This document shows positions 2,418 to 45,730 of a stretch of DNA of 64,000 bases, in pieces. The translations under genes were made by a program, and so were the position numbers. Below the pieces are notes generated by a model. That model made no database searches. It saw nothing but the letters and a program-made list of their open reading frames with translations, and was not told the origin of the DNA. Within the stretch, counting starts at the first letter, position 1. Each line of letters opens with the position of its first letter. This DNA is from Escherichia phage vB_EcoM_G10400, in sequence record MK327937.1, one strand, 5' to 3'.

Positions 2418-2447
2418 ATTATACCACATCCTTGTGGTAAAGTAAAC
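2418..2447 (-). promoter_or_regulatory. T4-type early promoter (GTTTAC -35, 18-bp spacer, TATAAT -10)
   Basis: minus strand gtttactttaccacaaggatgtggtataat upstream of rIIA.1. Confidence 0.6.
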
Positions 2448-4264
2448 TACTGGCTCATCCATTCTTTACGAAGGTCAGCATTATCTCCCATGAGCATTTC
2501 AAAAAGCTCTTTCCAATTCTCAGGAAGTTTAACAACATCATATACTGGGTTTTGAATCATCTCACGATATTCAGATTTTTCCAAAGAACCAAGTCCTTTA
2601 ATATAACGGATGTTATGTTTAGGTAGAGCATCTTTGGCACTCTCATATTCAGCGACTGTATAAAACCATTCTTGTTTTTTACCGACCTGAGCGATGATTA
2701 CGGGAGTTTTGACAAAGCGAATTCGTCCTTGCTCAAACAGTTCTGGCCAATTACTAAAAAATCCGAGCAGAGAAGGATAAATGCTTCCTAGACCATCATG
2801 GTCAGCATCAGTCATAATAGCAATATTATGATAATTCAAGTTTTCAGCTTTTTCACCAAGAACTAATCCAGTGATTGCGCAAATATCAAATAGTTCTCTG
2901 TTTTTAAGCATATCTGCATAAGACATACCCCAGCTATTAAGAACTTTACCGCGCAATGGATAACCACCATGAAGTTCTTTATCACGAACATCAATAAGAT
3001 ATCCGATAGCCGAATCACCCTCAGTTAAGAATAATGTAGTATCAGCATCTTTACCGCAAAGATTCGCTTTGATATGTTTATGAACCTTAGCTTTAGAAGC
3101 CTTTTTAGCCGCTTTAGTTTCTGCTGCTTTTTCTGCCGCCAATTTACGAGCTAGTGCAGCTTCAATAATTGGCATCAGAATTGCTTCATTATTTAGAATA
3201 GCACGTGAAATCTTTTTAGCATCAAGTTGAATATGACTACGAATTTCGCCAAATGGAGAAGTCAAACGCTCTTTAGTTTGAGAATCAAATCGCATGTTTT
3301 TCATATCACGAACAAACATAACGATAGTCAAACATTCTTTGACACGCGCTTTAGTTACATCAATTTTGAACTTACGTTTGATTTGTGGAATAAGGTCTTC
3401 ACAAATATCATCCATAACACAGTCAATGTGATGGCCACCATTCTTAGTATGAATGTTATTGACGTATGTTAATTGACGAAAACCATCCGGTGAACGACCA
3501 ACCGCAATAGAACAATTTTCTTGTTCTTGAACAATAGCATGCTCATCATATTGGCGTGCATATTTCTTAAAATTGCCTTGAACCTTTTTACCATTAAAGG
3601 TAAATTGAATATCAGGATAAACTACTGCAAGTGTCTGGAGACGATCTAGTGTAATGTCAAGATAAACTTGGGACAGCTCATTAGTTTCAAATGACATAAA
3701 ATCTGGAATGAAAGTAACACGGGTTCCTTTCCATTTTCCAGGAATATCTTCCCATGATTTATTTTCCATGCCGTTTGAACAACGAACTACAATATTATTT
3801 TGACCATCACCAGTTTCACCGACAAACATCACAGAAAAAATGTTTGTCAAACTAGAACCAACACCATTCATACCGCCAGTGACGCGCTCTTTATCATCAC
3901 CGAAGTTACCACCTGCTTTTGGAATAGTCCATGCAGCAACAGGACCAGGAATTTCTTCACCGGTAGGTGTTTTAACCATTGCTTGTGGAATACCACGACC
4001 GTTATCTTCAACTGTTACTTGATTGTTTTTAATAGTAACATTAATTTTATTTGCGAATTTAAACTTAGTACGAATACCTTCATCTACTGAGTTATCGATA
4101 ATTTCATCAATAAGCTTAACAAGACCAGGTACATACTGAACACTTTCCCATTTACCAAACAGAAAGCGCTCATGCATTTCATTAGCAGAAGAGCCAATGT
4201 ACATGCCGCTACGCTTTTTGATATGTTCAATATCGCTCAGAATTTTAATTTCATTCTTAATCAT
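2447..4264 (-). CDS. 39: DNA topoisomerase II large subunit, fused gp39+gp60 form (GHKL ATPase + Toprim)
   Basis: 605 aa from ATG at 4264 (track start 4267 is GTG); ATPase motifs NGRGIP, GGMNGVG and Toprim LFLTEGDSA, MTDADHDG in one uninterrupted frame. Confidence 0.9.
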   Translation of the reverse strand: MIKNEIKILSDIEHIKKRSGMYIGSSANEMHERFLFGKWESVQYVPGLVKLIDEIIDNSVDEGIRTKFKFANKINVTIKNNQVTVEDNGRGIPQAMVKTPTGEEIPGPVAAWTIPKAGGNFGDDKERVTGGMNGVGSSLTNIFSVMFVGETGDGQNNIVVRCSNGMENKSWEDIPGKWKGTRVTFIPDFMSFETNELSQVYLDITLDRLQTLAVVYPDIQFTFNGKKVQGNFKKYARQYDEHAIVQEQENCSIAVGRSPDGFRQLTYVNNIHTKNGGHHIDCVMDDICEDLIPQIKRKFKIDVTKARVKECLTIVMFVRDMKNMRFDSQTKERLTSPFGEIRSHIQLDAKKISRAILNNEAILMPIIEAALARKLAAEKAAETKAAKKASKAKVHKHIKANLCGKDADTTLFLTEGDSAIGYLIDVRDKELHGGYPLRGKVLNSWGMSYADMLKNRELFDICAITGLVLGEKAENLNYHNIAIMTDADHDGLGSIYPSLLGFFSNWPELFEQGRIRFVKTPVIIAQVGKKQEWFYTVAEYESAKDALPKHNIRYIKGLGSLEKSEYREMIQNPVYDVVKLPENWKELFEMLMGDNADLRKEWMSQ

Positions 4265-4313
4265 CACTTATCCTCGTTTGGTTTCGGGAATATTATACTC
4301 CAATAATCATAAA

Positions 4314-28656: not shown

Positions 28657-29220
28657 TTACCATTCCAATGCTAGTTTTTTGAGTTGTTTCTGTTCTTTTA
28701 CGTTCTTAGTCACTTCTTTCAAAAAATCATCCGTGACTAATCCTTTAAGTTCTTTTAATACTAAAGGTAGTTTTCCATTTTTAGTAAGAATTGATTTATA
28801 GTTAATTGCATCATTTGTATTAACTTGATACCGCTTAGCAAGTAACTTAATAATCAATACTTCGGTGGAATCTTCAACCAGTTTTGCCCATTTACCATAT
28901 CTTTTACCACGAGGAACTGCAGCCATTAGATAATTAAAATGAGCTTCATCACTTAAGCCTGATCCAATTAAATTCATAGCATATACAGCTGGCATGCATT
29001 CTGGAAATTGTGATAATGCATTTTCAACCATGAATTTTGAATAATCTTTTTGAGCAATAGAGCATTTAGTTTTATTATTGATAGCTCCAATTATTTCAAA
29101 AAATTCATTTTCGGCTTTTTCTTTAAAAGAATCAGCAGCGGATTGGACAGCTGTCCAATCTTTTGAATACCAAGCAATCTGATGCTCGTTTAATTGAATA
29201 TCATCTTCAAATAAGCTCAT
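28657..29220 (-). CDS. 62: clamp loader small subunit
   Basis: 187 aa; matches T4 gp62. Confidence 0.9.
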
Positions 29221-29221
29221 A

Positions 29222-30181
29222 TCACTTCCACTGCATTTCGCACGCTAATTGAATGAAAAGATATGCTAAATGTAATTCCGTATTAGCCGCAATTCCATGA
29301 TACTGATTATTTTCGCCAACAATTTCGTACATGCGAATAATACTCTGTGGAGTTACACGTGAATAGATTTCTTCGGCAAGTTTACCCACGAACCACGAAT
29401 AATCAGCTGCATATTTTGGTGCTAAAGCTCTGAGTTGTTTAACATCTTTATTTTTGAGAGACTCAAGAACATCATCAATAGCACCACGATCGTTAGTAAC
29501 CAGTGATAAAATACCAGCATCCAAAACACCTTTAGATGAATAACTATCGAGCTCGCCAATAGTTTTACGAAAATCAGGAAAATTCTTTTTAACCAAAGCT
29601 GCTACAACTTTCATATCAGCTATAGCAATTCCTTCATGCTTACAGATTTCAGTCAATCGACGAATCATCTGCTTCATCATTTCAATTTTATCTTCATCGG
29701 TCGGTTGACCGAACGTAATAACTCGGCAGCGTGACTGAAGTGGTTTAATAATACCATCAATATTATTAGCAGTAATAATAATACTACAGTTTGAACTATA
29801 AGCTTCCATAAAGGAACGAAGATGTCGCTGAGACTCTGCTAATCCTGAGCGGTCAAATTCATCAATAACGATTACTTTTTGACGACCATCAAATGAAGCG
29901 GCGCTGGCAAAATTAGTCAAAGGACCGCGAACGAAATCAATTTTACAATCTGATCCATTCACAAACATCATATCAGCATTTACATCATGACACAATGCTT
30001 TTGCTACAGTTGTTTTACCTGTTCCTGGAGAAGGAGAATGAAGAATAATATGTGGAATCTTACCTTTACTTGTAATAGATTTAAAGGTTTCTTTATCAAA
30101 GGCGGGAAGAATACATTCATCGATAGTAGATGGACGATATTTCTGTTCAAGAATGTGTTCTTTTTCATTTACGGTAATCAT
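29222..30181 (-). CDS. 44: clamp loader ATPase subunit
   Basis: 319 aa from ATG 30181 with GAGGA RBS (track start TTG); Walker A SPGTGKTT. Confidence 0.93.
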
Positions 30182-30211
30182 AATTTCCTCATTCAAGTTT
30201 TAGTGTAAATT

Positions 30212-30231
30212 ATAAAGGGCCGAAGCCCTCT
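30212..30231 (-). terminator. tetraloop hairpin terminator
   Basis: agggccgaagccct downstream of gene 45. Confidence 0.55.
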
Positions 30232-30232
30232 A

Positions 30233-30919
30233 TTAAAAATCGTGGGTAGAATCAGCTTCAAGAGCTACTACATAATTCGCATGTTCACCTTCAAATTTAG
30301 CAGCACCTTGTTTACCTTTTGCCCAGAGCAGAAGTTTATAATTTCCTGGTTGCATTTTCATATTTGCCATATTGATAATGAAATTAAATGTATTTTCACC
30401 ATCATAATCACCAAGAGTCAAAGAATATTTAACACGGGTAAGAGCAGAATCTTCTACTTTATTAAAACCGTTAATTACGATTTTACCTTCTTTTACCGTG
30501 ATAGCAATTGTATCAATTTGCAGACCACGAGATACACGCAACAGTTGTTGAAGGTCTTCAGCTTTAATTTCAGTAACAACAGATGCTACCGGGAATGGAA
30601 TTGGTTTATTAGGAGCAACTACTGTACTCGGATCGGCTGCTGGCCAAAAAATTGTTGAACGGGCATCAGCAATTTTAATATTTCCATCTTCTGACTGGGA
30701 AATTTCTGCATCATCATTAACTAGAGACAGAATACCGAGAAAACCATTCAAATCGTAAATTGCTACATCAAAATCAATAACGTCAGAAATATTTGCTTCC
30801 GCATAAGTTGTACCATTAACTGCGCGAGTCATAATAAATTGACCGGATTTAAGCATAATGCCAGAGTTAATAGTAGCGAAATTTTTCAAAATATTCAGTG
30901 TGTCTTTAGATAATTTCAT
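30233..30919 (-). CDS. 45: sliding clamp
   Basis: 228 aa; matches T4 gp45. Confidence 0.9.
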   Translation of the reverse strand: MKLSKDTLNILKNFATINSGIMLKSGQFIMTRAVNGTTYAEANISDVIDFDVAIYDLNGFLGILSLVNDDAEISQSEDGNIKIADARSTIFWPAADPSTVVAPNKPIPFPVASVVTEIKAEDLQQLLRVSRGLQIDTIAITVKEGKIVINGFNKVEDSALTRVKYSLTLGDYDGENTFNFIINMANMKMQPGNYKLLLWAKGKQGAAKFEGEHANYVVALEADSTHDF

Positions 30920-31803
30920 TTCAATTTCCTATTTACATAATAGTTAGACCAGGACCGTACAGCACCCTGATAAGATTCGTCGTTAAACCCATTAGCTACT
31001 GCAATTTTACGAAATTTATTATAACTCGGTTTTCCGTAAGCATGCCATAAAGATTTTAATTCATCTTCATGTTCAATCCAAGTTCCTCTAGCTTTAGATT
31101 TTCTAAATTTTGATTTGAATTCCGGTGAATTATTTCTAACAGTTGCTTGAATTGAAGCTCTCTGTCTTCTTTCAGCATTATTCCATAACTCTTTTTGAGA
31201 TTTAGAAATTTTTGATTTTACACTTTCTGAATTCATTATATCACTAAACTTTTTAGCATAACTGCAATCAAGATATTTCAATTTCATCTTATTTGAAAGT
31301 TTAAGCTTTTTCTCATCGGTCCAGTGATTCTTCATTGAATTAGATATTTTGTATTTTACGTCAGAACTATGTTTGTAACCTTTACGAATACCAACATAAT
31401 CGGGCGTAATTTCAGATTGCGAAAGCTTTACAATTTTTCCAGTTAAAACATTTTTATATGTTCCATATCCTTTAGCGCCAATTAAAGTATTTTCATCTGC
31501 GTATGCTTTATTAAAATATTTTATATTACTTTTTGCTTTAACTTTTAATTGAAAAAATCTTTCCAATTTTCTTGGATCTAATACAGTTTCAGCTAAAATT
31601 TTGACGGTATATTTAGTGGTTTTAATAAGCTCAAAATATTCATCGCTATAACTCGATGACACGCTTCCAGTATAAATCTTTCCAGCTGAATCAATTATAT
31701 TTGTTCCATCGAAAATTGCGTCAATTTTCGAACCTATATAATAACATGGAAAAATATTTTTAGCTTCCCGCTCTGGAAAGCTAATAAGATATACTAAATT
31801 CAT
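30916..31803 (-). CDS. homing-endonuclease-like protein (GIY-YIG/Seg-like N-terminus, NUMOD-like repeats), paralog of 43284..44105
   Basis: 295 aa; N-terminal VYLISF...YYIGSK...FDGTNIID; basic C-terminus with repeated KISxSxK motifs; ATGA overlaps on both sides. Confidence 0.55.
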
Positions 31804-32189
31804 TTATTAAAATCAGCTGCGATTGTTTCGGCAACAATTTGAGCAGCAACAATCAGACGTTCATCTGCATTGCCGCAATATTCATCTTCAAGGCGTTCAC
31901 CACATGAAGTCATAATAAATTTAGCACCGGCGTTTAGAGATTCTGTAGTATGTTTGCGCATTAGTTCAATCCATTTATTACTTACTTCACGATCGATAGC
32001 TTCATAATACGCATGACGAGCAGGTGCAGATTTAATTTTGTTCTGAATAACTTCCATTGCGTTATCAGAAAGAGACAAAACCCATGCTCGACGAATTTTA
32101 TTTTGGTTTTGTGGATTTGATTCAGAACGCACGTGTTTTGGCTGAATATCTTTTACATCAACAGTATAATTCACAGTAATTTTAGTCAT
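31800..32189 (-). CDS. rpbA: RNA polymerase binding protein RpbA
   Basis: 129 aa; position after gene 45; matches T4 RpbA length. Confidence 0.75.
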
Positions 32190-32198
32190 AATACACCT

Positions 32199-32387
32199 TT
32201 AGTCATAATAATCAGTAACAGTCCAAGCTTCATTTCTATTGGACATTATTTTTGTATATTCTGCTTTAAATGCATTCCTAAGCATAGATTCAGTAACTAT
32301 ATGCTCTTCATTAGAAAAATTATTTCTCAGAATATATCGTTTTATTTCAGGAAAAGTTAATAAATGCTGTCCAGTTGAATATTCCAT
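32199..32387 (-). CDS. hypothetical protein (45.2-like)
   Basis: 62 aa ORF. Confidence 0.5.
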   Translation of the reverse strand: MEYSTGQHLLTFPEIKRYILRNNFSNEEHIVTESMLRNAFKAEYTKIMSNRNEAWTVTDYYD

Positions 32388-32442
32388 GTTTTTCCTCCAT
32401 AGAGATTATACTCTAATAAATTAAAGCATAATCTCTTATAAA

Positions 32443-34125
32443 TTAAACCATTACAGTAAATCGACCAACTTTCTTCATTTGAAGATGCTGACCATATTCT
32501 TGCGGGTCATGGTCTTTATGCGAAATTATAAAAACATTAGTGTTTTTCATTGAATTTATAATATTAGCTACACCTTTAATACCTTCGGCATCAAATGACC
32601 CATCAAACACTTCATCAAGAATTAATGTACTAATACTAACACCAGATACGATAGAAGCAATATCACGCCAAGTAAATAAAAGAGCAATATCAATTCGTGC
32701 CTTTTCACCTTCACTAAATGAAGCATAACTAAAATCTTCACGACCACGGGATTTAATTGTCTCATTAAATTCTTCATCTAATGTAAACACATAATCCGCT
32801 TCCATTATTTTAAGATAATGGTTAATCTGCTTATTAAATAATGGAATGTACTTTTTAATAATAGCACCTTTAATACCAGAATCTTTGAGCATATCAGTCA
32901 AAATTCCTCGGTGGTATTTTTCCATTACTAAATTAGTTTTTGTCTTAACAATTTTATCAAGTTCTTCTTGAAGCAATGCTATTTCATCAGCATGGTCAAT
33001 AAACTCGGATGATGCTTTTTCTATAGCTGCTTTAACTTTTTTAGCTTTATCTACTGTCGTGATTAGAGATTGCTTTTTATTGCGAATATCATTTGCCAAC
33101 GACTGCTGGGTTTTAATATTATCTCGGTATTCATCAACAAGAACTTTTAAATTATCACGGTGTGTTGAAAGCTGTTCAAACGAATGCGTACATTCAGAAA
33201 CTTTATCTTTAATTTTAGAAACAACTTTATCACCGGAACTTAATTGTGACAAACAGGTTGGACATAATCCACCTTCGTGATACATATTAATGACTTTATT
33301 ATACGAGTCAATTTTTGATTTAATTAAAACTGCTTCTTGACCGATTTTATTAAATGCATCAGTCGGGTCTTCATCTAAAACAATATTAACTAATCTTTCA
33401 TTAGCTTCTTCTATTTCCGATTTTAGCGTTCTAGCTTCTTTTGCCAAATCATCATACATATTTTGAAGACGAGTAAGGTTGTCACCCGTTAATTTTTTCT
33501 GGCGTTCAACGTTATCATTATATATTTTAATTTGTTGGATAATACTATCTTTTTTAACATCAAGCACTTGGTTCTGTGAGTTTAATTCACGTATTAGTGC
33601 TTTATTAAGCTTATCCATTTCAGCTAATGTTCCTACCTCAAGCAGGTCTTCCACAAGCTTTCTTCGCGCAGGGGTCGACAAACCCATGAAAGGGGTATAC
33701 CCTGCTGTACCAAGGACAACAATCTGCTTGAAACTGGCATATGACATTCCGATAAGCTGTTCAAATTCTGCTTGGAAATCTTTACTGCTGGCAGATTCAT
33801 TAAGACGTGTACCGTTAACGGTGATTTCAAAAACGTTCGGTTTTTGTCCTCTTTTGATATAGTACTTTTTCTCATCATATTCCATCCACAGTTCAACTAA
33901 AAGTTCTTTCTTATTTGTGCTGTTTATTAATTGACCTTTCTTTACATCACGAAATGGCTTGCCAAAAAGCCCAAATGTGATGGCTTCTAGCATAGTAGAC
34001 TTACCACCGCCATTTCGTCCAGTAATAAGAGTTTTTTGAACCTTATCTAATTGAATGTCAATAGGATTTCCACCTACTGACATTATATTTTGATACCTAA
34101 CTCGGTTTAGTTTAAAATTCTTCAC
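32443..34125 (-). CDS. 46: recombination endonuclease subunit (Rad50/SbcC-like ATPase)
   Basis: 560 aa; Walker A GRNGGGKST, coiled coil, signature and Walker B at C-terminus. Confidence 0.95.
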   Translation of the reverse strand: MKNFKLNRVRYQNIMSVGGNPIDIQLDKVQKTLITGRNGGGKSTMLEAITFGLFGKPFRDVKKGQLINSTNKKELLVELWMEYDEKKYYIKRGQKPNVFEITVNGTRLNESASSKDFQAEFEQLIGMSYASFKQIVVLGTAGYTPFMGLSTPARRKLVEDLLEVGTLAEMDKLNKALIRELNSQNQVLDVKKDSIIQQIKIYNDNVERQKKLTGDNLTRLQNMYDDLAKEARTLKSEIEEANERLVNIVLDEDPTDAFNKIGQEAVLIKSKIDSYNKVINMYHEGGLCPTCLSQLSSGDKVVSKIKDKVSECTHSFEQLSTHRDNLKVLVDEYRDNIKTQQSLANDIRNKKQSLITTVDKAKKVKAAIEKASSEFIDHADEIALLQEELDKIVKTKTNLVMEKYHRGILTDMLKDSGIKGAIIKKYIPLFNKQINHYLKIMEADYVFTLDEEFNETIKSRGREDFSYASFSEGEKARIDIALLFTWRDIASIVSGVSISTLILDEVFDGSFDAEGIKGVANIINSMKNTNVFIISHKDHDPQEYGQHLQMKKVGRFTVMV

Positions 34126-34385
34126 AAAAGATTCCTTTTAATGTATCTTTTAGACCATTCTATCATATCATCATAATCTAAAAAGTATTCATCAAATTCA
34201 GCCATGCAAACAACGCCTTGTGCTGTTTTTGATGTAATATAAATTATTCCAACATATCTAGAATCTTCTTCGGTGTAATCAATATTTGCTATGAATTCAT
34301 CATTAATGTCAAATGTCGAAAACTTCACAGTATGCATCCTTAATACAAGATACAGCCATATCTCGTAATGATTTAGGTGTGTCAT
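34122..34385 (-). CDS. hypothetical protein
   Basis: 87 aa ORF; overlaps next ORF by 77 nt in another frame; start uncertain. Confidence 0.4.
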   Translation of the reverse strand: MTHLNHYEIWLYLVLRMHTVKFSTFDINDEFIANIDYTEEDSRYVGIIYITSKTAQGVVCMAEFDEYFLDYDDMIEWSKRYIKRNLL

Positions 34386-34572
34386 TATCTAAAATGTTGA
34401 AGTTAAAAGATACAGCCCAGTCAGTGCAGACCGTGACCTTTTTAATACAATTATCTTCAACCTCTAGCGGTTCAAACCAATATTCAATAATTTCTTTATG
34501 ACCAATATCATCTTTTACTTCGCATTCAAAATGCTGACTCATCATAACATTTTTAAATTCATCAAAAGTCAT
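34309..34572 (-). CDS. hypothetical protein
   Basis: 87 aa ORF, ATGA overlap with gene 47. Confidence 0.45.
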   Translation of the reverse strand: MTFDEFKNVMMSQHFECEVKDDIGHKEIIEYWFEPLEVEDNCIKKVTVCTDWAVSFNFNILDNDTPKSLRDMAVSCIKDAYCEVFDI

Positions 34573-35588
34573 TGTGTTGCCTCTACATATAGCTGATTCG
34601 CATATTGAATAAGTGCTTCACGGTCAGAATCAGTGATGTCTGGAATTGCATTAATGTATTCTTCCATCAACGTCTGAAGAGATTGAACTTCAACTTCTTC
34701 ACTGTCATCTGACTCGACAGAGTTATCAATCTTTGACACAACTCGTAATGAATGCACAACTTTTTCTAGTTCAGATTCGAACTTCGTTAGATTTTTGTCT
34801 ACTTCAGTTACTATAACACGTACTGATAGATTTGTAAAATCTTTATAGTCAATTTTTCCTTTAAATGGATAATGAATTCTACGATGCCAAGTAGTGTTGT
34901 TTGGAATAAATTCCATTCGTTCTGTTTCTGTATCAAACATCCAGAACCCACGAGGGTCATTCTCGTCACCTGCAGTTAGTGTCCATGGTGTCCCAATATA
35001 TCTGACGTTTGCAGCCTCAGAAATAGTATGGAAGTGACCAGACCACACTTCTTTATAAGTCTTAAGGAAATCAGGTTCAAGACCGTGAGATTTCATTCCT
35101 TTATAAAAATAAAATCCATTCAGTTCCCAGTGACCAACGCAAAAAGAAGCAGATGAAGTTTTGATGTGCTCAAGAATTTCACCAGTATTTTCTTCACACA
35201 TCCAAGGAATTAAATCAATTAAACATCCGTCAAAATCTACTGTAGTAGGCTTATCATATACTTTAACATTAGGATATTTAGCCAAAAGCTCAGTAGAAGC
35301 ATTTGGATGCATTACATTTTTGTAGTGGAGATCGTGATTTCCTACAATAGTATGTAATGTGATTCCAGCACCATCAAGCATTTGAACTATTTCACGGGCA
35401 AACTCCATAGTTTTATGCGTGATCGCTTTTCGCACATCAAAAATATCACCGTATTGAATCCATACCGTAATTCCATTTTTCTTAGAATATTCTATCGCTT
35501 GCTTAATTCCATCAATTTGAATACCGCGAATCCACTCATCATCGGCTTTAACGCCTAAATGCCAATCACCTAAATTTAAAATTTTCAT
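34569..35588 (-). CDS. 47: recombination nuclease subunit (Mre11/SbcD-like)
   Basis: 339 aa; phosphoesterase motifs GDWH, GNHD; matches T4 gp47. Confidence 0.95.
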   Translation of the reverse strand: MKILNLGDWHLGVKADDEWIRGIQIDGIKQAIEYSKKNGITVWIQYGDIFDVRKAITHKTMEFAREIVQMLDGAGITLHTIVGNHDLHYKNVMHPNASTELLAKYPNVKVYDKPTTVDFDGCLIDLIPWMCEENTGEILEHIKTSSASFCVGHWELNGFYFYKGMKSHGLEPDFLKTYKEVWSGHFHTISEAANVRYIGTPWTLTAGDENDPRGFWMFDTETERMEFIPNNTTWHRRIHYPFKGKIDYKDFTNLSVRVIVTEVDKNLTKFESELEKVVHSLRVVSKIDNSVESDDSEEVEVQSLQTLMEEYINAIPDITDSDREALIQYANQLYVEATQ

Positions 35589-35725
35589 ATATCAAGAACC
35601 GTCATTGAAATGCAAAATAAAATTAATGAAATAAATCCATCTGGAGTGCTAAAGAACCCAATCCAACATGCTCTGGTGAACAAATAAAACGCTAGAAAAA
35701 GTATCACATATCCAAGAAATATCAT
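35585..35725 (-). CDS. hypothetical small membrane protein
   Basis: 46 aa hydrophobic hand-translated ORF; ATGA overlap with gene 47. Confidence 0.35.
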   Translation of the reverse strand: MIFLGYVILFLAFYLFTRACWIGFFSTPDGFISLILFCISMTVLDI

Positions 35726-35744
35726 TATATCAAACTCCGTATAA

Positions 35745-35767
35745 AGCTAAAGGGCCGAAGCCCTTTA
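35745..35767 (-). terminator. tetraloop hairpin terminator
   Basis: aaagggccgaagcccttt overlapping alpha-gt stop codon. Confidence 0.55.
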
Positions 35768-36967
35768 TTTTGTAATAATGTCAAATTGCTCTTTAAAGCA
35801 GAAGCTTGAATCTTGATGCTGATACAAAAATTCATAAGCTTTTTCACGTTCACGGTCATAAAGAGTTCGATCAGATGACAGTTCTTTAATACGTTCAAAT
35901 GTTGATTTCATATCATTTTCATCAAACCAAATGATACCGCTATCATGCGAGGTCAAAGGAGTATTATCAACACGGAATTTTAAATTTTCGCCAATAGATT
36001 TCCAAAATACCGGAATTGTTCCACATGCACCAAGCTCGAGATGAGTATATTCTAAAGAGCGCTGTAGATATTTTTTATCCAACTTACTCAACTGATAACC
36101 AAAACCGGATTTGCTCATGCGTTCAAGCATTTCGCTATTTACATAACGGTCAAGAATTTGCGTTGGCAAATTAGGAGCAATTTTAATTTGGTCTACTTGA
36201 TGAAGACGATAATACTCGTATGGAATTCCTTTTTCTTTAATAGGAATGAACGCTGGAGAACGTTCCAGACCTTCCATAATAGTACTTAGTCCTGCAGGTT
36301 TAAGATGTTTTTCGTGAAAATCAAACATCTGATAAAAGCCTTTCCATGTAGTAGTACGACCAATCCAACGGTTGATATTCATGTTAATTTCAGAAACATC
36401 TTTCCAGTAGGTTGATCGAACCTTCGCAATATCCATAGGAGGCTGAAAGTTATATACTGTCGGCGCTTCTTCAATATCATCAAACAAAGAAACTGTTTCA
36501 GGATACCATTCTTTCATCAGAACTTTATTAAAATCACCATTATCAGAATGGCTAAAAATAACATCAGCTCGACGAACAGTTTCTTCTAATCCCAAATTTC
36601 GGCGCAAAGAAAGAGAAGAATGGTCATGTTGATAAACTACAACACGAACAGAAGGTTTAATGTTATCAATAATTTTTTTATAGTTATTAATAGTGTCTTC
36701 TTCAACCGAAGTAGCAGGAACTGAATTGATAATTAGAATATCACAATCATTTACCAGCTTAAGTGTTTTATCATATTCTTTTGCCAATAAAACCGGAATT
36801 GAAAATGATTTATAATCATGCGCGCAATTACGAGTAAATGATTTATCTTTAGCATAAACCAAAGTTACTTCATGACCATTCTTAATAAACCAATCACGTT
36901 GCTCAAGAGAAAATTTAGTTACACCACAACCTTCAAGACCTCGAGCCATAAAAATACATACTTTCAT
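35765..36967 (-). CDS. agt: DNA alpha-glucosyltransferase
   Basis: 400 aa; near-identical to T4 alpha-gt as recalled. Confidence 0.95.
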   Translation of the reverse strand: MKVCIFMARGLEGCGVTKFSLEQRDWFIKNGHEVTLVYAKDKSFTRNCAHDYKSFSIPVLLAKEYDKTLKLVNDCDILIINSVPATSVEEDTINNYKKIIDNIKPSVRVVVYQHDHSSLSLRRNLGLEETVRRADVIFSHSDNGDFNKVLMKEWYPETVSLFDDIEEAPTVYNFQPPMDIAKVRSTYWKDVSEINMNINRWIGRTTTWKGFYQMFDFHEKHLKPAGLSTIMEGLERSPAFIPIKEKGIPYEYYRLHQVDQIKIAPNLPTQILDRYVNSEMLERMSKSGFGYQLSKLDKKYLQRSLEYTHLELGACGTIPVFWKSIGENLKFRVDNTPLTSHDSGIIWFDENDMKSTFERIKELSSDRTLYDREREKAYEFLYQHQDSSFCFKEQFDIITK

Positions 36968-37016
36968 TTAATATCCTCTTTGTTTTGGTTTATTTTACCA
37001 AAAATTTATAAAGCAA

Positions 37017-37037
37017 TATAGGAGCCGAAGCTCCTAT
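37017..37037 (-). terminator. tetraloop hairpin
   Basis: taggagccgaagctccta. Confidence 0.45.
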
Positions 37038-37207
37038 CCACATAATACGCCATACAGAGGCTCGTTAGAACTTTTAAATTTTATGCGCTTATATTTTATA
37101 GTTCCTTCTGCTTTAGCTTTATCATGAGACGCTTTAAAGAGTCTCATCATTTCCTCTTTAGAGGAACGAATTTTATTATAATCTATTTCAGAAGTCTGGG
37201 TGTTCAT
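37034..37207 (-). CDS. hypothetical small protein
   Basis: 57 aa hand-translated ORF; weak RBS; stop codon overlaps terminator hairpin. Confidence 0.3.
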   Translation of the reverse strand: MNTQTSEIDYNKIRSSKEEMMRLFKASHDKAKAEGTIKYKRIKFKSSNEPLYGVLCG

Positions 37208-37210
37208 CTT

Positions 37211-37414
37211 TCACAGTTGCCACCATTTTTTGACTTGGTAAGAATCAACCCACACTTTCATATTAGGGTCTGCTCTTACAATAGGAGGATTAACTTCTTT
37301 AATTGAACTATCATGGTATTCTTTTTCAGAAATTTTCACACAAAGATGACCATTCAAAGATTCAGTAAATCCTGCATTAATTTTAAGACGCTTGAATTTT
37401 ACGTGTGTAAGCAT
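37211..37414 (-). CDS. hypothetical protein
   Basis: 67 aa from ATG 37414 with GAGGA RBS (track start TTG). Confidence 0.5.
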   Translation of the reverse strand: MLTHVKFKRLKINAGFTESLNGHLCVKISEKEYHDSSIKEVNPPIVRADPNMKVWVDSYQVKKWWQL

Positions 37415-37700
37415 CAATCATATCCTCAATCTGCGATCTAGTAGTCTTCCAAAGAATACTGATGAGTTCATCGTTATATGGCTGTTTCAGAATATCCCGA
37501 CTTTTCTTGATAGCATATTCGTATTGAGCAAAATTATTATTTTCAGCTGCAATCTGAGCGTGCTTATAAAGACGATTCAGTTCGCGTTTGTTTTTAGACA
37601 ATAACTTATTTGCTTTTCTTTCTGCTTCAAGACGGTTCTTTTCTTCAATAGAAGAAATAAGCTTTTCCACTTCATCATTAATTTCGGGTTTATCAGTCAT
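37383..37700 (-). CDS. hypothetical protein
   Basis: 105 aa ORF. Confidence 0.55.
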   Translation of the reverse strand: MTDKPEINDEVEKLISSIEEKNRLEAERKANKLLSKNKRELNRLYKHAQIAAENNNFAQYEYAIKKSRDILKQPYNDELISILWKTTRSQIEDMIDAYTRKIQAS

Positions 37701-37701
37701 A

Positions 37702-37920
37702 TTATTTCTCTAATATAAAATAAAAATCATCATCTGTTAAATGATACCGATAGTTTAATTCTACACCATTAGATTTAAAAGCGGTATCATACGGATTTTC
37801 TGGATCAATATCAATGTCAAGAGCTAAAACTTCCCTGAGATACATTTTAAGTAAATAGGGAATAGCTTCAACTTCAGGTATTTCTTCCAAGAATCCGGAG
37901 AGGTTAATCGTTAGCCTCAT
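37702..37920 (-). CDS. hypothetical protein
   Basis: 72 aa ORF. Confidence 0.5.
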
Positions 37921-38461
37921 ATAAAAAATCCAAACTAGGAGAATCGTCTACAACACTTTTCTTTTCAGCCCCCGGTGTTCTATAGGTTGATTCTTCGTAA
38001 TGCGTCATTTTATCGTAGATGTCTTGAATAAAAGTTTCATCTACTAACGCAACCATATCGTCGTCACGACTGTCATAGACATTGTGAACGAAGTAACTAT
38101 ATTTCTTTGCAACTTCCTTACGTTCTTTTTTAATACGTTGGACGAATGCATTAAAACAAGCTTGAGTTATATACGCATGTGGGTTTTTATATTTCGTTTC
38201 ATCAAAATTATGAAGCCCCTTAATAGAAGCTTCTATACCATCTGCAATCATTTCTTGTTTCCAAGACTGGGTGTATCCTGAAAAGTTGAAACGTTTAGAT
38301 AAGCCTTCTGCAATAAGCATAATGGCTAATCCGATAGTATCATTTTGACGAACTACTTTATTTGGGTCTTTATTATTTGCTAATTCTGTTTTCCAATCAA
38401 TAATAGCTTGTAAAAGCTCTTTATTGTTTACGTAATTATATTTAGGCTTAGTTTCTGGCAT
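37904..38461 (-). CDS. 55: late-transcription sigma factor gp55
   Basis: 185 aa from ATG 38461 (track start GTG); matches T4 gp55. Confidence 0.9.
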
Positions 38462-38539
38462 TTTCACCTCTTAGCTCAATTCATAGATCTATTATATCAT
38501 AATATTTGAAGATCTATCTTAAAGCATAGAGGATATCAG

Positions 38540-38809
38540 TTATCTAAGTAAGCAGTATGCTTGGAACACTTTCTCCATCATCTTTTTAAATTCATGAATA
38601 TCTATGTAATGATCATTAATATCAGCGCGATATAAAAAGTCTAAAAACTTTTTATGGGTATTAGAATATTTACTTCCAGTTAATTCAGAAACATGGCTTT
38701 CCCAATATCCAACACCAGTTTTATTTGGGAAAAATGAAATTTTCATGTATTGGTCAACATAGAAAATACCAAAATTTTCAATAGCAATAGAAATATTAAT
38801 TAATTTCAT
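38540..38809 (-). CDS. hypothetical protein
   Basis: 89 aa ORF. Confidence 0.5.
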   Translation of the reverse strand: MKLINISIAIENFGIFYVDQYMKISFFPNKTGVGYWESHVSELTGSKYSNTHKKFLDFLYRADINDHYIDIHEFKKMMEKVFQAYCLLR

Positions 38810-39027
38810 ACATTCATCAACTTAGCCGCTTCAAAAGCTGCATCTAGTGAATCAAACTGGTCAACGTATTCAATCAATTCGCCGTAATTGGCATATAACC
38901 ACCATTGGCTAAATTCATACTCAAGGATGAATCCGTTTCCTTCAATTTGAGTTAAACCAATGCCATTTGTATTTACTTCATATCCGGCAAGACGTAAATC
39001 GTTAATAAGAGCTTCGTTCATATTCAT
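38806..39027 (-). CDS. hypothetical protein
   Basis: 73 aa ORF, ATGA overlap. Confidence 0.5.
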   Translation of the reverse strand: MNMNEALINDLRLAGYEVNTNGIGLTQIEGNGFILEYEFSQWWLYANYGELIEYVDQFDSLDAAFEAAKLMNV

Positions 39028-39350
39028 ACCTTAGCAATTTTCAGGTCTGCAAATTTTTTCTTGCGTTGATTTTTCATGCGACGAATAGTTTTATCGGAAA
39101 TTTCATGCTTTTGATAAGCTTTAGATTCTACACCAAAAGCTTTAACATCAAATTCTGACAAGATATATTGAACCAACAATTCACGGACAGTATTGCGTCC
39201 AATCTTCTGATCATTCTGTTTCATCGTCTGATGAAGCTCTTTTTCCCATTTATCCAAAATTTGAGGAGTTACAATATCGCCTTTTTCTAGCAAAGAAACT
39301 ACTTTATCATATGCGTAAGAATTAATGACGTTTTTAATTTGAATAGTCAT
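39024..39350 (-). CDS. hypothetical protein
   Basis: 108 aa ORF. Confidence 0.55.
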   Translation of the reverse strand: MTIQIKNVINSYAYDKVVSLLEKGDIVTPQILDKWEKELHQTMKQNDQKIGRNTVRELLVQYILSEFDVKAFGVESKAYQKHEISDKTIRRMKNQRKKKFADLKIAKV

Positions 39351-39384
39351 ACATTATCCTCAATTACGTTAAAATTTTATTATC

Positions 39385-39405
39385 CAAAAAGGGCCGAAGC
39401 CCTTA
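39385..39405 (-). terminator. tetraloop hairpin terminator + U-run
   Basis: aagggccgaagccctt then uuuuugg on minus strand. Confidence 0.6.
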
Positions 39406-39603
39406 GCTAAACTTTTTGGCACCCTTCCAGCCTTCATACATCATTGCGGCTGATATTAATATTGCTCCTGAGCAACTTGAATATTTGTGATTCCAAAACC
39501 AGTTTAGAAAAACTTCATCATCAATACCTTGGGCTATCATATTTTCAAAGAACTGACGACGAGATTCGGCAATTCGTTGTGATAATTTAGATTCAGGATT
39601 CAT
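39403..39603 (-). CDS. hypothetical protein
   Basis: 66 aa ORF; stop overlaps terminator hairpin. Confidence 0.5.
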   Translation of the reverse strand: MNPESKLSQRIAESRRQFFENMIAQGIDDEVFLNWFWNHKYSSCSGAILISAAMMYEGWKGAKKFS

Positions 39604-39735
39604 TTAAATTTTCCAGTTACCGTTTTCATCAATAAATTTAATCCAGTCATTTACTGACCACTTAGTTGTATCACCTTTTGGAGTAACATTTAAAGTGTAT
39701 AACCCCTGCTTAAAAAGCATTCGTTTGATATTCAT
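39604..39735 (-). CDS. hypothetical small protein
   Basis: 43 aa from ATG 39735 with GAGGA RBS (track ORF 39604..39819 begins with TTG). Confidence 0.35.
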   Translation of the reverse strand: MNIKRMLFKQGLYTLNVTPKGDTTKWSVNDWIKFIDENGNWKI

Positions 39736-39742
39736 AATTTCC

Positions 39743-40036
39743 TCAGCTGTAACGATAACACTCGTTTGATTTACGTTTAGCAACTCGTTGAGAAGTATTA
39801 TAATCAAAATCATCGTCAATGTAAACTGATTTTTTCAACTTTCTTACTTCACCGCGTAATTGACGATTTAGCTCATCTTTAACTTCTGAATCAATACCTT
39901 TCATTCTACGCCATTTATCTGAGCGAAAAATGTTTTCAACCATATCTTTATGACTTACACCATCAGGAGCTTTACGCTTTCCGAAATAGTCATAATCACG
40001 CACTTTTAAGTCTTTACGACGATACGTTTTACCCAT
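39743..40036 (-). CDS. hypothetical basic protein
   Basis: 97 aa from ATG 40036 with AGGA RBS; Lys/Arg-rich. Confidence 0.5.
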   Translation of the reverse strand: MGKTYRRKDLKVRDYDYFGKRKAPDGVSHKDMVENIFRSDKWRRMKGIDSEVKDELNRQLRGEVRKLKKSVYIDDDFDYNTSQRVAKRKSNECYRYS

Positions 40037-40211
40037 GGAGTTTAATTTCCTTAGCAATTGAACTAAATGCAGCACGATCGCAAATCATGTGTTTATGTAA
40101 CTTAAGTATAAGATAATAAACATCATAACCATTTACGTAAGTAACGCGAACAGCATTACCATTAATAAGATAATACTGTCCCTTTTTAATTTCTTTATCA
40201 ATCATAACCAT
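40029..40211 (-). CDS. hypothetical protein
   Basis: 60 aa ORF downstream of early promoter. Confidence 0.45.
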   Translation of the reverse strand: MVMIDKEIKKGQYYLINGNAVRVTYVNGYDVYYLILKLHKHMICDRAAFSSIAKEIKLHG

Positions 40212-40241
40212 ATCAATTCCTCAAAGGCAATTCATGTGTTA

Positions 40242-40271
40242 ATAATACCATAGTTTGAGCTCGTTGTAAAC
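40242..40271 (-). promoter_or_regulatory. early promoter
   Basis: minus strand gtttacaacgagctcaaactatggtattat. Confidence 0.5.
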
Positions 40272-40344
40272 AACTTTGTGAAAATTATTTTAGGGAATGA
40301 TAAGAAAGGAACGATAGCTTAGAATGGTAATATACAGAATGTGA

Positions 40345-40366
40345 GAAAGAAAGGCCCAGAGGGCCC
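40345..40366 (-). terminator. hairpin terminator
   Basis: ggccc-aga-gggcc followed by U-rich tract on minus strand, downstream of nrdH. Confidence 0.55.
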
Positions 40367-40369
40367 GTC

Positions 40370-40678: not shown

Positions 40679-40680
40679 AA

Positions 40681-40893: not shown

Positions 40894-41008
40894 ATTTTAC
40901 CCTTAATTGATTAACCAAGCATTGATAAGCACTAAACTATACTGTGAATAAAATTCTGGACCAAAATGAAAAATCATATCATTTATAGTATCCATAATGT
41001 AATTCAAT

Positions 41009-41479
41009 TTAATCATGTTTCCACACCCCATCGGTATTTGACCAAAGTCGCTGATTATCTGATCCTCGCCACAGCTTTTTAGTCGGAAGATTTTTCTCAT
41101 ACTTCCCATCAATAATAACATCAACATATTTAAGCATTTCTAGTTGTTTAATATCTTCAAACTTATATCCTGTCCACAACCAAATGCTTTTATTGGGATA
41201 AAGATTTTTTACTGTTTGAACAATGCAATGAATAACATCTCGGTTATCAGGATAGAGAGGGTCACCTCCAGTTATAGTCAATCCTTCTATATAATCATTA
41301 TTCAAACATTCAATTAATTGTTCTAGTGTTTCACCAGTGAATGGAACGCCATTTCTAGCGTTCCATGTTGATTTATTATAACACCCTTCACATTTATGCA
41401 AACAACCTGTAACGAAAAGAACGACCCTGCATCCAGGGCCATTCACAAAATCGCAAGGATAAAATCTATCATAATTCAT
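41009..41479 (-). CDS. nrdG: anaerobic ribonucleotide reductase activating protein (radical SAM)
   Basis: 156 aa; CxxxCxxC cluster CLHKCEGCYN. Confidence 0.9.
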   Translation of the reverse strand: MNYDRFYPCDFVNGPGCRVVLFVTGCLHKCEGCYNKSTWNARNGVPFTGETLEQLIECLNNDYIEGLTITGGDPLYPDNRDVIHCIVQTVKNLYPNKSIWLWTGYKFEDIKQLEMLKYVDVIIDGKYEKNLPTKKLWRGSDNQRLWSNTDGVWKHD

Positions 41480-43293
41480 TGGTGTTTAACCCTATGCATG
41501 ATTTCTTTATTTTTGCCGAGATTAAATCCACGTTCGTTCGGATTTCCCAAATAACCACAAGTTCTTCTTATTGTGTTCATCTTTTTAGGATCAGTTTCTC
41601 CACAAATAGAACAAACAAACCCGTTTTCAGTAGGAGTCATTTCATGGGTACTTCCACACGTAAAACATTTATCTACTGGCATGTTAACACCAAAATAATC
41701 TAAATGTTGTGCAGCATAATCCCAGACAGCCTCAAGACCTTTTAGGTTATTTTTCATATCAGGAAGTTCAACATAAGAAATGTGACCACCTGTCGCAATG
41801 AAATGATATGGCGCTTCACGAGAAATTTTTTCAAACGGAGTAATATTTTCTTCTACTGAAACGTGGAAACTATTAGTGTACCAGCCTTTATCGGTAACAT
41901 CTTTTACACTTCCATATTTTTCTGTATCAAGTTTACAGAAGCGATAACAAAGGTTTTCAGCAGGAGTCGAATATAAACTAAAAGCAAATCCAGTTCTTTC
42001 AGTCCACTGTTTAAGATGAGCATTCATTTTAGTTAAAATTTCTTGTCCAATATCACGACCGACAAGAATATTCAATTCGTGAATACCAATGTATCCTAGG
42101 GACACTGAACTTCTACCATTTTTAAATAACTCAATTATATCGTCATCAGGTTTAAGACGAACCCCGAATGCACCTTCTTGGTAAAGAATAGGAGCAACAG
42201 TCGCTTTAACTCCTTTTAAGGAACTAATTCTACACATCAAGGCTTCAAAGCACAGATCCATTCGTTCATTAAATAGCTCAACAAATTTCTGTTCATTGAA
42301 CTGTGTTCCAATATAAGAATCTAATGCGATACGAGGAAGATTCAGTGTTACAACACCGAGATTATTACGTCCATCAAGAATTTCATTACCAGTCGAATCT
42401 TTCCATACGCTCAAGAAACTACGGCAGCCCATCGGAGAAACAGGAATAGATGAACCAGTGATAGCTTTATTGTTCTTAGCTGAAATAATATCAGGATACA
42501 TCCTTTTGCTTGCACACTCTAGAGCAAGCTGCTTAATATCATAGTTCGGATCGTCTTTATAAAGATTAACACCTTCTTCAACGAACATAACAAGCTTAGG
42601 GAAAATAGGAGTTATCCCATCACGACCGAGACCTTTAATACGATTTTTCAGAATTGCTTTCTGAATCATTCGTTCAGTCCAGTCAGTTCCCGTACCAAAT
42701 GTAATTGTTACAAAAGGTGTTTGCCCGTTTGAACTAAAGAGAGTATTTACTTCATATTCATAAGCTTGAAATGCATCGTATACATCTTTTTCTGTTTTAG
42801 ATTGAGCATAATTCAACGCATCAGCGATTTGCCATTTTTCTGCATCCTCAATATGTTTTGCATAGGTGCGTTTAACATAAGGAGAAAGTACTTTATCTAC
42901 ATTAGCAAAAGTCGTTCCGCCGTATTGGTGAGAAGCAACCTGTGCAGTAATTTGTGCCATAATTGCAGTAGCAACTCCAATTGATTTAGGAGTTTCAATC
43001 TGTGCATTACCAAGCTTAAATCCGTTCTCAAGCATTCCTTTTAAATCTACTAAACAGCAATTAGTAAAAGGCAATGATATACTGTAATCTAAATCATGAA
43101 AATGAATTAATCCAACATTATGGGCATTTACAATATGACTTGGAAGAATACGACAAGCGATATGTTTAGAAACAATACCGGCCATTAAATCTCTTTTTGT
43201 TGGAAAGACGCGAGAATCTTTGTTGGCGTTTTCCGTATTTAATTCTTTATCTTTATTTGAAATAAAATTTAAAACATCTTTTTCTAAAGACAT
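41476..43293 (-). CDS. nrdD: anaerobic ribonucleoside-triphosphate reductase (glycyl radical enzyme), uninterrupted
   Basis: 605 aa continuous ORF; C-terminal Zn ribbon CFTCGS...CSICG and glycyl radical motif RTCGYLG. Confidence 0.95.
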   Translation of the reverse strand: MSLEKDVLNFISNKDKELNTENANKDSRVFPTKRDLMAGIVSKHIACRILPSHIVNAHNVGLIHFHDLDYSISLPFTNCCLVDLKGMLENGFKLGNAQIETPKSIGVATAIMAQITAQVASHQYGGTTFANVDKVLSPYVKRTYAKHIEDAEKWQIADALNYAQSKTEKDVYDAFQAYEYEVNTLFSSNGQTPFVTITFGTGTDWTERMIQKAILKNRIKGLGRDGITPIFPKLVMFVEEGVNLYKDDPNYDIKQLALECASKRMYPDIISAKNNKAITGSSIPVSPMGCRSFLSVWKDSTGNEILDGRNNLGVVTLNLPRIALDSYIGTQFNEQKFVELFNERMDLCFEALMCRISSLKGVKATVAPILYQEGAFGVRLKPDDDIIELFKNGRSSVSLGYIGIHELNILVGRDIGQEILTKMNAHLKQWTERTGFAFSLYSTPAENLCYRFCKLDTEKYGSVKDVTDKGWYTNSFHVSVEENITPFEKISREAPYHFIATGGHISYVELPDMKNNLKGLEAVWDYAAQHLDYFGVNMPVDKCFTCGSTHEMTPTENGFVCSICGETDPKKMNTIRRTCGYLGNPNERGFNLGKNKEIMHRVKHQ

Positions 43294-44105
43294 AATTCTA
43301 ATTTATCCTTTTGAAATTCTTCGTCTAAATATGGGTTCCAACCCATTTTAAACCTTTTGATGAAATTATCAATTCTAAATTTCGGTAAGTTTAAATCCGC
43401 AAAAATAGATGATTTACTTTTAAAATCTGGACTTAAATAATCATATAAAATTTCTGCGTATTTTAACCATAATATACAAGTACCAGATTTAATTGCTCTT
43501 GGAGTTTTCCAAGGTTTTACACCATACATCGGATTTCCGCTTCCTTTATGCCTGATAGAAGATGAAATTCCAATTTTAATTTTAGCTTCCTTTGTATGCG
43601 AAAATCCACGATGTGGATTTTCTTTCCAGTATTTTTTAGAAGCTTCTGATATTTTCTTTCTAGCTAAATTAGTATGATGCTTTCCATAAAATCCATGATT
43701 TTTGCCTTTATTACGATTTCTTTTAATCATGGTTATTGATTGCTTTTCTCTAGTTTCTTTAGAAGGAGAAATACCATATGTCGTAAATCGGCCATCAGCA
43801 TATGCTAAATTAAAATACTCTTTATTCCATACATCTTTTTCTATATTCTTTTGAAATTCAGCTTCAATGCTAGTTATTTGTTCATCTCCGACTAATTGAA
43901 AATATAATATTTCAACTTTCGGCGTTTCTTTCAATAAGGCTTTTTGAAATTCGGAAGATGACGAAGACGAATAATAAAATTTACCATTTTTATCAATAAT
44001 ATTCGTTCCATCAAAAGTGCAATTGGTTTTACTTCCAATGTAATAATATGGTGGGGTTTTAGCATTAATTCTATTAATAAATGATAGTTTATATACTACA
44101 TTCAT
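43284..44105 (-). CDS. homing-endonuclease-like protein (GIY-YIG/Seg-like), paralog of 30916..31803
   Basis: 273 aa; N-terminal VYKLSF...YYIGSK...FDGTNIID; inserted between gene 49 and nrdD with overlaps. Confidence 0.55.
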   Translation of the reverse strand: MNVVYKLSFINRINAKTPPYYYIGSKTNCTFDGTNIIDKNGKFYYSSSSSSEFQKALLKETPKVEILYFQLVGDEQITSIEAEFQKNIEKDVWNKEYFNLAYADGRFTTYGISPSKETREKQSITMIKRNRNKGKNHGFYGKHHTNLARKKISEASKKYWKENPHRGFSHTKEAKIKIGISSSIRHKGSGNPMYGVKPWKTPRAIKSGTCILWLKYAEILYDYLSPDFKSKSSIFADLNLPKFRIDNFIKRFKMGWNPYLDEEFQKDKLELCL

Positions 44106-44575
44106 TTTAAACTCTTTCTAAGCTGCTTCTTGAATGAAGCTATTAATTGTGTTTTGGTGTCAGATTCATTATATTCAAATCCTCTTTGAAGCATCTCAGC
44201 CATCATTTCCTCTTTTCCTAAACGAGAAAATTCCTTTGATTTATCTCCAACAAAGTTAGGGTGAATATTATTTTGGGTGTAATCGGATTTTAAATAAGTA
44301 AGTAAATTTTCTAACCATTCAAGATAATCAACCCCTTGTCCCTTTAAGCCAGAACGATTAAATTTATGTTTCATTTGACCTTCTGCGGCATTACAGAGAT
44401 TACAAAGCAATCCACGTACCTTTCCTGCTTTTGGTCCATTTAATTCATGGTCATGGTCGAGGTGATTAGCTTGAACGTCAGGATTTAGTTCTCGTTGGCA
44501 AATTAAACATTTACCATTTTGTGCATCATAAAATTTCTGTTTTTCTTCTTTGTATAATTTGCCAGTCAATAACAT
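44102..44575 (-). CDS. 49: endonuclease VII (Holliday junction resolvase)
   Basis: 157 aa; near-identical to T4 gp49 as recalled. Confidence 0.92.
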   Translation of the reverse strand: MLLTGKLYKEEKQKFYDAQNGKCLICQRELNPDVQANHLDHDHELNGPKAGKVRGLLCNLCNAAEGQMKHKFNRSGLKGQGVDYLEWLENLLTYLKSDYTQNNIHPNFVGDKSKEFSRLGKEEMMAEMLQRGFEYNESDTKTQLIASFKKQLRKSLK

Positions 44576-44616
44576 AATAAACCCTTACCTTAAATAGATA
44601 AGGGTATTTATTATTT

Positions 44617-45546: not shown

Positions 45547-45557
45547 TTTTTCACCAA

Positions 45558-45728: not shown

Positions 45729-45730
45729 AT

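Follow-up and report, generated by a model that had tools for sequence, protein, structure and literature searches.

Two putative SegG-type homing endonuclease genes at the rpbA/45 and 49/nrdD junctions of a T4-like phage

T-even phages are rich in Seg and Mob endonucleases that vary among close relatives, and a gene standing at a junction that is empty in T4 raises the question of whether it belongs to this mobile complement and, if so, how it moves. Two such open reading frames (ORFs) occur in the first 64 kb of the genome of Escherichia phage vB_EcoM_G10400 (sequence record MK327937.1), a T4-like phage (Tequatrovirus); this stretch of 64,000 nucleotides (nt) is referred to as the window throughout, and positions are given in its numbering unless a contig is named. 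The window opens with rIIA, and its gene order is collinear with that of T4. ORF1, between rpbA and gene 45, and ORF2, between gene 49 and nrdD, are homologous to T4 SegG and have the GIY-YIG fold; they are very probably free-standing homing endonuclease genes (HEGs) of the SegG branch of the GIY-YIG family, i.e. selfish mobile genes with a predicted nuclease activity. They are also called HEG1 and HEG2, and phages with and without the respective insert HEG+ and HEG-. The coordinates proposed in an initial annotation of the window are confirmed by the ORF list, which places both on the minus strand, in the orientation of their neighboring genes:

30916..31803, minus strand: ORF1 (HEG1), 295 amino acids (aa), putative free-standing SegG-type GIY-YIG homing endonuclease gene at the rpbA/gene 45 junction
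43284..44105, minus strand: ORF2 (HEG2), 273 aa, putative free-standing SegG-type GIY-YIG homing endonuclease gene at the gene 49/nrdD junction

The two proteins share their first ~105 residues, with 43% identity over 106 aa (E 2e-13), and both contain the motifs MN(L/V)VY..SF and YYIGSK; the common N-terminal block noted in the initial annotation is thus real. The term 'paralogous', which was used there for the genes as a whole, applies to the nuclease domain, whereas the C-terminal parts differ. No third paralog of ORF1 and ORF2 is found within the window. The shared domain comprises:

31489..31803, minus strand: ORF1 residues 1-105, SegG-type GIY-YIG nuclease domain (Y5, Y22-I-G24, K26, Y44, E81, N98)
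43791..44105, minus strand: ORF2 residues 1-105, SegG-type GIY-YIG nuclease domain

The route to T4 SegG led through the annotation of a related phage, which reads '24.6 kDa protein in the Gp32-Gp59 intergenic region'. BLASTP aligns the SegG N-terminus (MNIVYWFTFEDRVKNKTPPYYYIGSKLNCSFENGIIYD...) with ORF2 at 40% identity (E 5e-27) and with ORF1 at 39% (E 6e-16). ORF1 further matches PHROG 655 (E 2.7e-31) and ORF2 PHROG 7504 (E 2.3e-34), both described as 'homing endonuclease', a label that both genes already carry in several GenBank/RefSeq records; a literature search found no publication describing an HEG at either the rpbA/45 or the 49/nrdD junction. Among 1.84 billion proteins, the domain family has 161 cluster representatives at E <=0.001, and in the 150 of these that were listed the domain nearly always begins within the first dozen residues. 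Y5, Y22, G24, K26, Y44, and N98 are invariant in 120 family members, E81 is kept in at least 90% of them, and R12 in at least 90% of the close relatives; 69 of the 120 also carry NUMOD3.

The structural evidence agrees with this assignment. V4-Y5 and Y22-I23-G24 fall on two adjacent β-strands predicted near the N-terminus (residues 2-8 and 21-26), the three-stranded sheet flanked by helices that constitutes the GIY-YIG fold is present, and AlphaFold models the N-terminal domains of both ORFs with confidence (predicted local distance difference test score ~95). hhalign gives a colinear match between the profile of the 120-member family and I-TevI that covers the catalytic Glu and Asn, the linker, and NUMOD3 (E 2.2e-4), pairing E81 with the metal-binding Glu (I-TevI E75) and N98 with the structural Asn (N90). 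Against a small, hand-made alignment of canonical GIY-YIG domains, hhalign aligns only the C-terminal half of the domain (E 0.013). In a search of the PDB, the profiles built from 24 and 120 sequences do not recover the catalytic domain of I-TevI; what they match is its NUMOD3 region alone (1i3j, the DNA-binding domain; E 0.0011 and 0.00038).

The junctions at which the two genes stand were compared with those of T4 (NC_000866) and of related phages; the neighbors in the window, which share the orientation of the respective ORF, are:

30233..30919: gp45, neighbor of ORF1
31800..32189: rpbA, neighbor of ORF1
44102..44575: gp49, neighbor of ORF2
41476..43293: nrdD, intron-less, neighbor of ORF2

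In T4, a gene-free spacer of 55 bp lies between rpbA and gene 45, and genes 49 and nrdD directly adjoin through an ATGA overlap with no gene between them; the initial statement that T4 has no seg gene at either junction is correct. Three of the four junctions in the window (rpbA/ORF1, ORF1/45, and 49/ORF2) are likewise ATGA stop-start overlaps, as had been claimed for all of them; the fourth, ORF2/nrdD, is instead a 10-nt overlap, ATGTCTTTAG. Neither gene is universal at its junction in related phages: the ORF1 insert is found in 24 of 625 related phage records and the ORF2 insert in 48 of 711. Both are patchily distributed among near-identical relatives, and the junctions that lack them are clean.

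All 15 sampled copies (7 of ORF1, 8 of ORF2) are intact, and the ratio of nonsynonymous to synonymous polymorphism (pN/pS), 0.13 for the ORF1 copies and 0.24 for the ORF2 copies, indicates purifying selection. Of the earlier description as 'degenerate GIY-YIG Seg' genes, the Seg-type GIY-YIG part holds through the homology to SegG, while 'degenerate' is misleading for intact genes under purifying selection whose motifs are the SegG variant. Outside this sample, a distant T4-like contig (L017:2352-3162) carries at 49/nrdD a homolog with 55-66% identity to ORF2 and a frameshift near codon 50, which is either a decaying copy or an assembly error.

The strongest sign of mobility lies beside ORF2, at the 5' end of nrdD, where eight HEG2+ phages were compared with four HEG2- phages, nrdD being aligned from the start codons:

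43069..43293, minus strand: nrdD nt 1-225, divergent tract always traveling with ORF2; putative co-conversion tract and presumed cleavage-resistant allele

Within nt 1-225 there are 78 fixed differences between the two groups, leading to 28 amino-acid changes, and within nt 226-480 there are none. The divergent tract occurs at >=90% identity in 49 records, close to the 48 that carry ORF2; the other 930 records that match it all lie below 90%, 11 of them at 80-90% and 919 at 60-80%. ORF2 and the tract together are found, 96-100% identical, in two phages of the genus Mosigvirus, 348Ecol098PP and AV112. Gene 49 of these two shares no more than 65-83% identity with that of the window and matches a HEG-less Mosigvirus instead, and their nrdD is Mosigvirus-like again past nt 240. 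ORF2 and the nrdD tract show little synonymous diversity (0.027 and 0.047), compared to 0.35 in gene 49 and 0.24 in nrdD nt 226-480. The near-identity of the cassette across genera, the linked fixed differences, and the low synonymous diversity together form, at the level of sequence, the signature of recent horizontal spread with co-conversion between Tequatrovirus and Mosigvirus.

The HEG-less allele of nrdD is itself unusual. Its nt 1-240 are 88-100% identical between Tequatrovirus and Mosigvirus (loci L030, L002, L004, and L006), next to a gene 49 at 65-83% and a downstream nrdD at 83-93% identity between the genera; precisely this conserved stretch is what ORF2 carriers have replaced, and it may reflect either conservation of the target or an exchange of the HEG-less allele as well.

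For ORF1, seven HEG1+ and eight HEG1- Tequatrovirus loci were compared. In all seven carriers the gene replaces the 55-bp rpbA-45 spacer, which is nearly invariant among the eight HEG1- phages, and changes the end of rpbA from CGT TAA to AAA TGA. The changes linked to it in gene 45 are few:

30887..30913, minus strand: gene 45 nt 7-33, ORF1-linked changes; three silent changes fixed in HEG1+ (nt 7, 9, and 18) and a patch at nt 21-33 (TLNIL allele)

The patch is present in 7/7 HEG1+ and 3/8 HEG1- phages. Considered as a HEG1-linked marker, the TLNIL/TTALL patch of gp45 is not diagnostic, as it occurs in these three HEG-less phages and as the distant loci with ORF1 orthologs, L012 (TLNIL) and L009 (TVNIL), have a similar allele. 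Co-conversion is thus only weakly indicated for ORF1, and the case for its mobility is weaker than that for ORF2.

Both insertions would affect the expression signals of their surroundings. The T4 rpbA-45 spacer holds a match to a middle promoter, ATTGCTTTA-N12-TATAAAAT, which the ORF1 insertion removes; the only candidate for a replacement promoter of gene 45 found inside ORF1 is a late-like sequence with one mismatch, TGTAAATA. The ribosome-binding site of gene 45, AGGAAA, is supplied by the last codons of ORF1, overlapping the gene 45 start. Near its own start, ORF1 has a hairpin that may act as an attenuator of the transcription or translation of the endonuclease gene; efficient termination there would leave gene 45 without transcripts, since the spacer promoter is gone. 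ORF2 uses the translation start that nrdD uses in empty genomes, and upstream of it lies a match to a MotA box that is also found in T4, where nrdD would be served; the annotation of phage Lutter likewise places a promoter at its 49/HEG junction. The start codons are covered by weak RNA hairpins only (z -1.1 to -2.7, depending on sequence context), and an Rfam search of window positions 29000-46000 gave no match. The two signals are:

31760..31784, minus strand: terminator-like site starting 20 nt into ORF1; 10-bp hairpin plus T-rich tail, folding energy -12.9 kcal/mol, z -1.8
44168..44193, minus strand: middle-promoter match resembling a MotA box, TGCTTCA-N13-TATAAT; located within gene 49 at its 3' end and upstream of ORF2 (consensus match only)

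Beyond the nuclease domain the two proteins part ways, each with its own putative DNA-binding region:

43521..43769, minus strand: ORF2 residues 113-195, three NUMOD3-type units (SPSKETREK.., KHHTNLARKKISEASK.., SHTKEAKIKIGISSS..)
43287..43520, minus strand: ORF2 residues 196-273, C-terminal domain, a homolog of the one in T4 SegG and presumed to bind DNA sequence-specifically
31108..31380, minus strand: ORF1 residues 142-232, five predicted helices with the repeated motif K-x-K-[IL]-S-x-[SK]-x-K (positions 150, 166, and 196)
30919..31083, minus strand: ORF1 residues 241-295, helical C-terminal domain (last codons AAT AGG AAA TTG AAA TGA)

ORF2 matches Pfam NUMOD3 (PF07460) above the gathering score, in two stretches (E 6.3e-7), so that the initial description of basic C-termini with NUMOD motifs fits it, except that the units sit in the middle of the protein and not at the C-terminal end. 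The homology of its C-terminal domain to that of SegG is seen in a Smith-Waterman score of 75, compared to 26.4 +/- 5.0 for shuffled sequences, of which none in 2000 reaches 75; AlphaFold models this domain with low confidence. In ORF1 the same description is marginal: its NUMOD3 match is sub-threshold (E 0.66), and the Pfam model finds no match in the ORF1 orthologs P0002-P0004. Residues 142-232 are probably a DNA-binding linker region, NUMOD3-like at best, and the helical C-terminus is unrelated to the C-termini of SegG and ORF2.

A further member of the family, P0009 (L015:4001-4822, in another T4-like contig), shares 56% identity with ORF2 in the N-terminal domain and lies between a homolog of gene 5 (baseplate lysozyme) and a T4 5.1-like gene, in the region where T4 carries segC; the SegG-type nuclease domain is thus joined to DNA-binding ends that vary from junction to junction.

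By analogy with T4 SegG, SegF, and SegE, we infer how the two genes would move, and with it the nuclease activity, the cut positions, the escape of their own DNA from cutting, and the mode of expression. Each gene would be a promoter-less cassette that is co-transcribed with its neighbors, and the ATGA overlaps would couple its low-level translation to that of the preceding gene. During co-infection with a HEG-less relative, the protein would bind through its C-terminal part (NUMOD3 units and helical domain), and the N-terminal GIY-YIG domain would cut both strands close to the empty junction. When the break is repaired by recombination with the HEG-carrying genome as template, the gene would be copied together with the DNA lying between it and the break. 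For ORF2 the mobile unit would comprise the ORF and nrdD nt 1-225, the 78 linked substitutions providing a presumed self-immunity. As the linked tract ends there, the cut in HEG-less phages is predicted within nrdD nt 1-225 or at its distal edge, beside the sequence coding for the invariant LPFTNCCLVDL. For ORF1, the target is predicted in the stretch formed by the rpbA-45 spacer and ~35 nt at the start of gene 45, i.e. the region removed or altered by the insertion.

Several points weigh against taking the two genes for mobile endonuclease genes. The HEG+ and HEG- samples (7-8 vs 4-8 genomes) are not phylogenetically independent. No residue can be assigned to the canonical catalytic Arg (I-TevI R27, ~10 residues after YIG), and 17 residues separate the GIY and YIG tyrosines where ~11 are expected. 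The Pfam and NCBIfam GIY-YIG models match neither the ORFs nor the isolated N-terminal domains; since the same models miss T4 SegG too, this carries no weight against membership in the family. The unassigned Arg, the atypical spacing, and the absence of a Pfam match would also suit catalytically dead, GIY-YIG-like DNA-binding proteins, kept as regulators or for the translation signals that their 3' ends provide to gene 45 and nrdD. The loss of the promoter-like spacer sequence and the location of the gene 45 ribosome-binding site in ORF1 fit this as well, because they could make a deletion of ORF1 costly with or without a nuclease function. It is nevertheless most improbable that the proteins are dead: T4 SegG, whose endonuclease activity is established (PMC2988022, PMC2330249), has the same motif pattern (Y5, R12, YYIGSK, E, YFN), the family conserves the structural Asn and the predicted metal-binding Glu to the extent described above, and the spread of the ORF2 cassette across genera requires a mechanism of mobility.

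The mobility of ORF1 is where further doubts gather. Its linked tract is tiny. With 0.057, ORF1 has a synonymous diversity only slightly lower than gp45 (0.079) and rpbA (0.10). Two T4-like contigs that are more distant also carry orthologs of it between rpbA and gene 45, at 57-60% identity, and the divergence of these orthologs roughly tracks that of gp45, gp44, and gp46 nearby. These three observations make a long vertical residence with losses possible for ORF1, which may be an old resident that homes occasionally. Extended to both genes, this would make them old residents of T4-like genomes lost in most lineages, their patchiness resulting from deletion and not from homing; the frameshifted ORF2 homolog in L017 suggests that decay happens. 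As an explanation for the pair this is very unlikely, since vertical descent cannot yield a cassette near-identical across genera beside a gene 49 at 65-83%, and the synonymous diversity of ORF2 is 4-13 times below that of its flanks. The HEG-less junctions, moreover, are uniform (the 55-bp spacer and the exact 49/nrdD ATGA abutment) and not scattered deletion scars. The interpretation as lineage-specific selfish insertions, already put forward in the initial annotation, is thus supported by the empty junctions of T4, the patchy distribution, and the presence of the ORF2 cassette in two genera, with strong evidence of mobility for ORF2 and moderate evidence for ORF1.

T4 SegG, the nearest known relative of these putative endonucleases, is listed as an active GIY-YIG endonuclease targeting gene 32 (PMC2988022, Table 1) and causes exclusion of T2 gene 32 in crosses (PMC2330249). 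Its gene (32.1, between 32 and 59) is, like both ORFs, free-standing, located at a gene junction in the orientation of its neighbors, and accompanied by a co-conversion tract in an adjacent essential gene. It shares with both the pattern MN-VY..F..R....PPYYYIGSK..C.F..G.I.D..GK.Y..S ... E ... YFN at 39-40% identity, and with ORF2 alone the C-terminal domain. The ORFs differ from it in their insertion sites (rpbA/45 and 49/nrdD, not 32/59) and in their presumed targets (the rpbA-45 spacer with the start of gene 45, and the 5' end of nrdD, not gene 32); ORF2 additionally has its three NUMOD3 units between the two SegG-like domains, and ORF1 a different and longer C-terminal half. I-TevI, the endonuclease of the T4 td intron and structural prototype of GIY-YIG homing endonucleases, has the same order of domains (nuclease, linker, NUMOD3, helical DNA-binding domain). 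It is, however, intron-encoded, its canonical Arg is present (Arg27), and 11 residues space its GIY and YIG motifs; the ORFs have an extra short helix within their 17-residue spacing, a β-hairpin insertion after YIGSK, and no assignable equivalent of Arg27.

The genes for anaerobic ribonucleotide reductase, nrdD/nrdG, are a known hotspot for homing endonucleases (PMC2988022). Other HEGs of T-even phages that target these genes are mobC (T4), SegH (phage U5), and I-TevII (in the nrdD intron); ORF2 differs from these in lying on the gene 49 side of nrdD and in being of the SegG type, not of the HNH mob or I-TevII type. In the window (41009..43293, minus strand), nrdD is one uninterrupted 605-aa ORF directly overlapping nrdG, and both the group I intron with I-TevII that T4 has in nrdD and mobC are absent. 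Relatives of the window phage have other HEGs on the opposite side of nrdD from gene 49. At this locus, Lv5cm, a carrier of both ORF1 and ORF2, has a segC-like gene and the intron with I-TevII, and TadeuszReichstein has another HEG; nrdD appears as an endonuclease hotspot in this comparison as well.

Genes of the SegG type also occur in other settings. In two T4-like metagenome contigs (L031:1529-4156 and L032:1532-3995), the family members P0022 and P0006 stand between the halves of a split uvsX, with a RecA_N product upstream, a T4_UVSX_C product downstream, and weak Pfam matches to Hint and intein-splicing domains; this looks like a 'fractured gene', in which a split intein is combined with a free-standing endonuclease gene. 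Elsewhere in the window, a single 606-aa ORF (2447..4267, minus strand) occupies the position of gene 39. In T4 this topoisomerase subunit is split into gp39 and gp60 with mobA in between; the window phage thus appears to have an unsplit gene for it.

Two further ideas, which we consider together and regard as rather doubtful, concern the chemistry of the domain and the cargo of the element. Among GIY-YIG domains, that of the SegG type may form a catalytic variant of its own, with the canonical Arg functionally replaced by other invariant residues, K26, Y44, and perhaps R12, located on family-specific insertions. Separately, the ORF2 element may be a co-adapted cassette of two parts, the endonuclease gene being linked to a functionally different N-terminus of NrdD (28 of the first 75 residues changed), in which case the homing of ORF2 would spread a variant ribonucleotide reductase between phage genera.

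For T-even phages these genes are ordinary, being uncharacterized members of a known family. What is new is the assignment of both to the SegG subtype, the definition of both junctions to the nucleotide, and, for ORF2, a co-conversion tract of 225 nt with sharp boundaries inside an essential gene, together with the recent transfer of the element between Tequatrovirus and Mosigvirus. The most useful result is this cassette shared across genera, a clean example from nature of a putative nuclease gene that crossed from one genus to another along with part of its neighbor. The analysis provides predicted cut sites for both enzymes and a natural system in which to study marker exclusion and the exchange of genes among phage genera, with a bearing on how therapeutic T4-like phages recombine.

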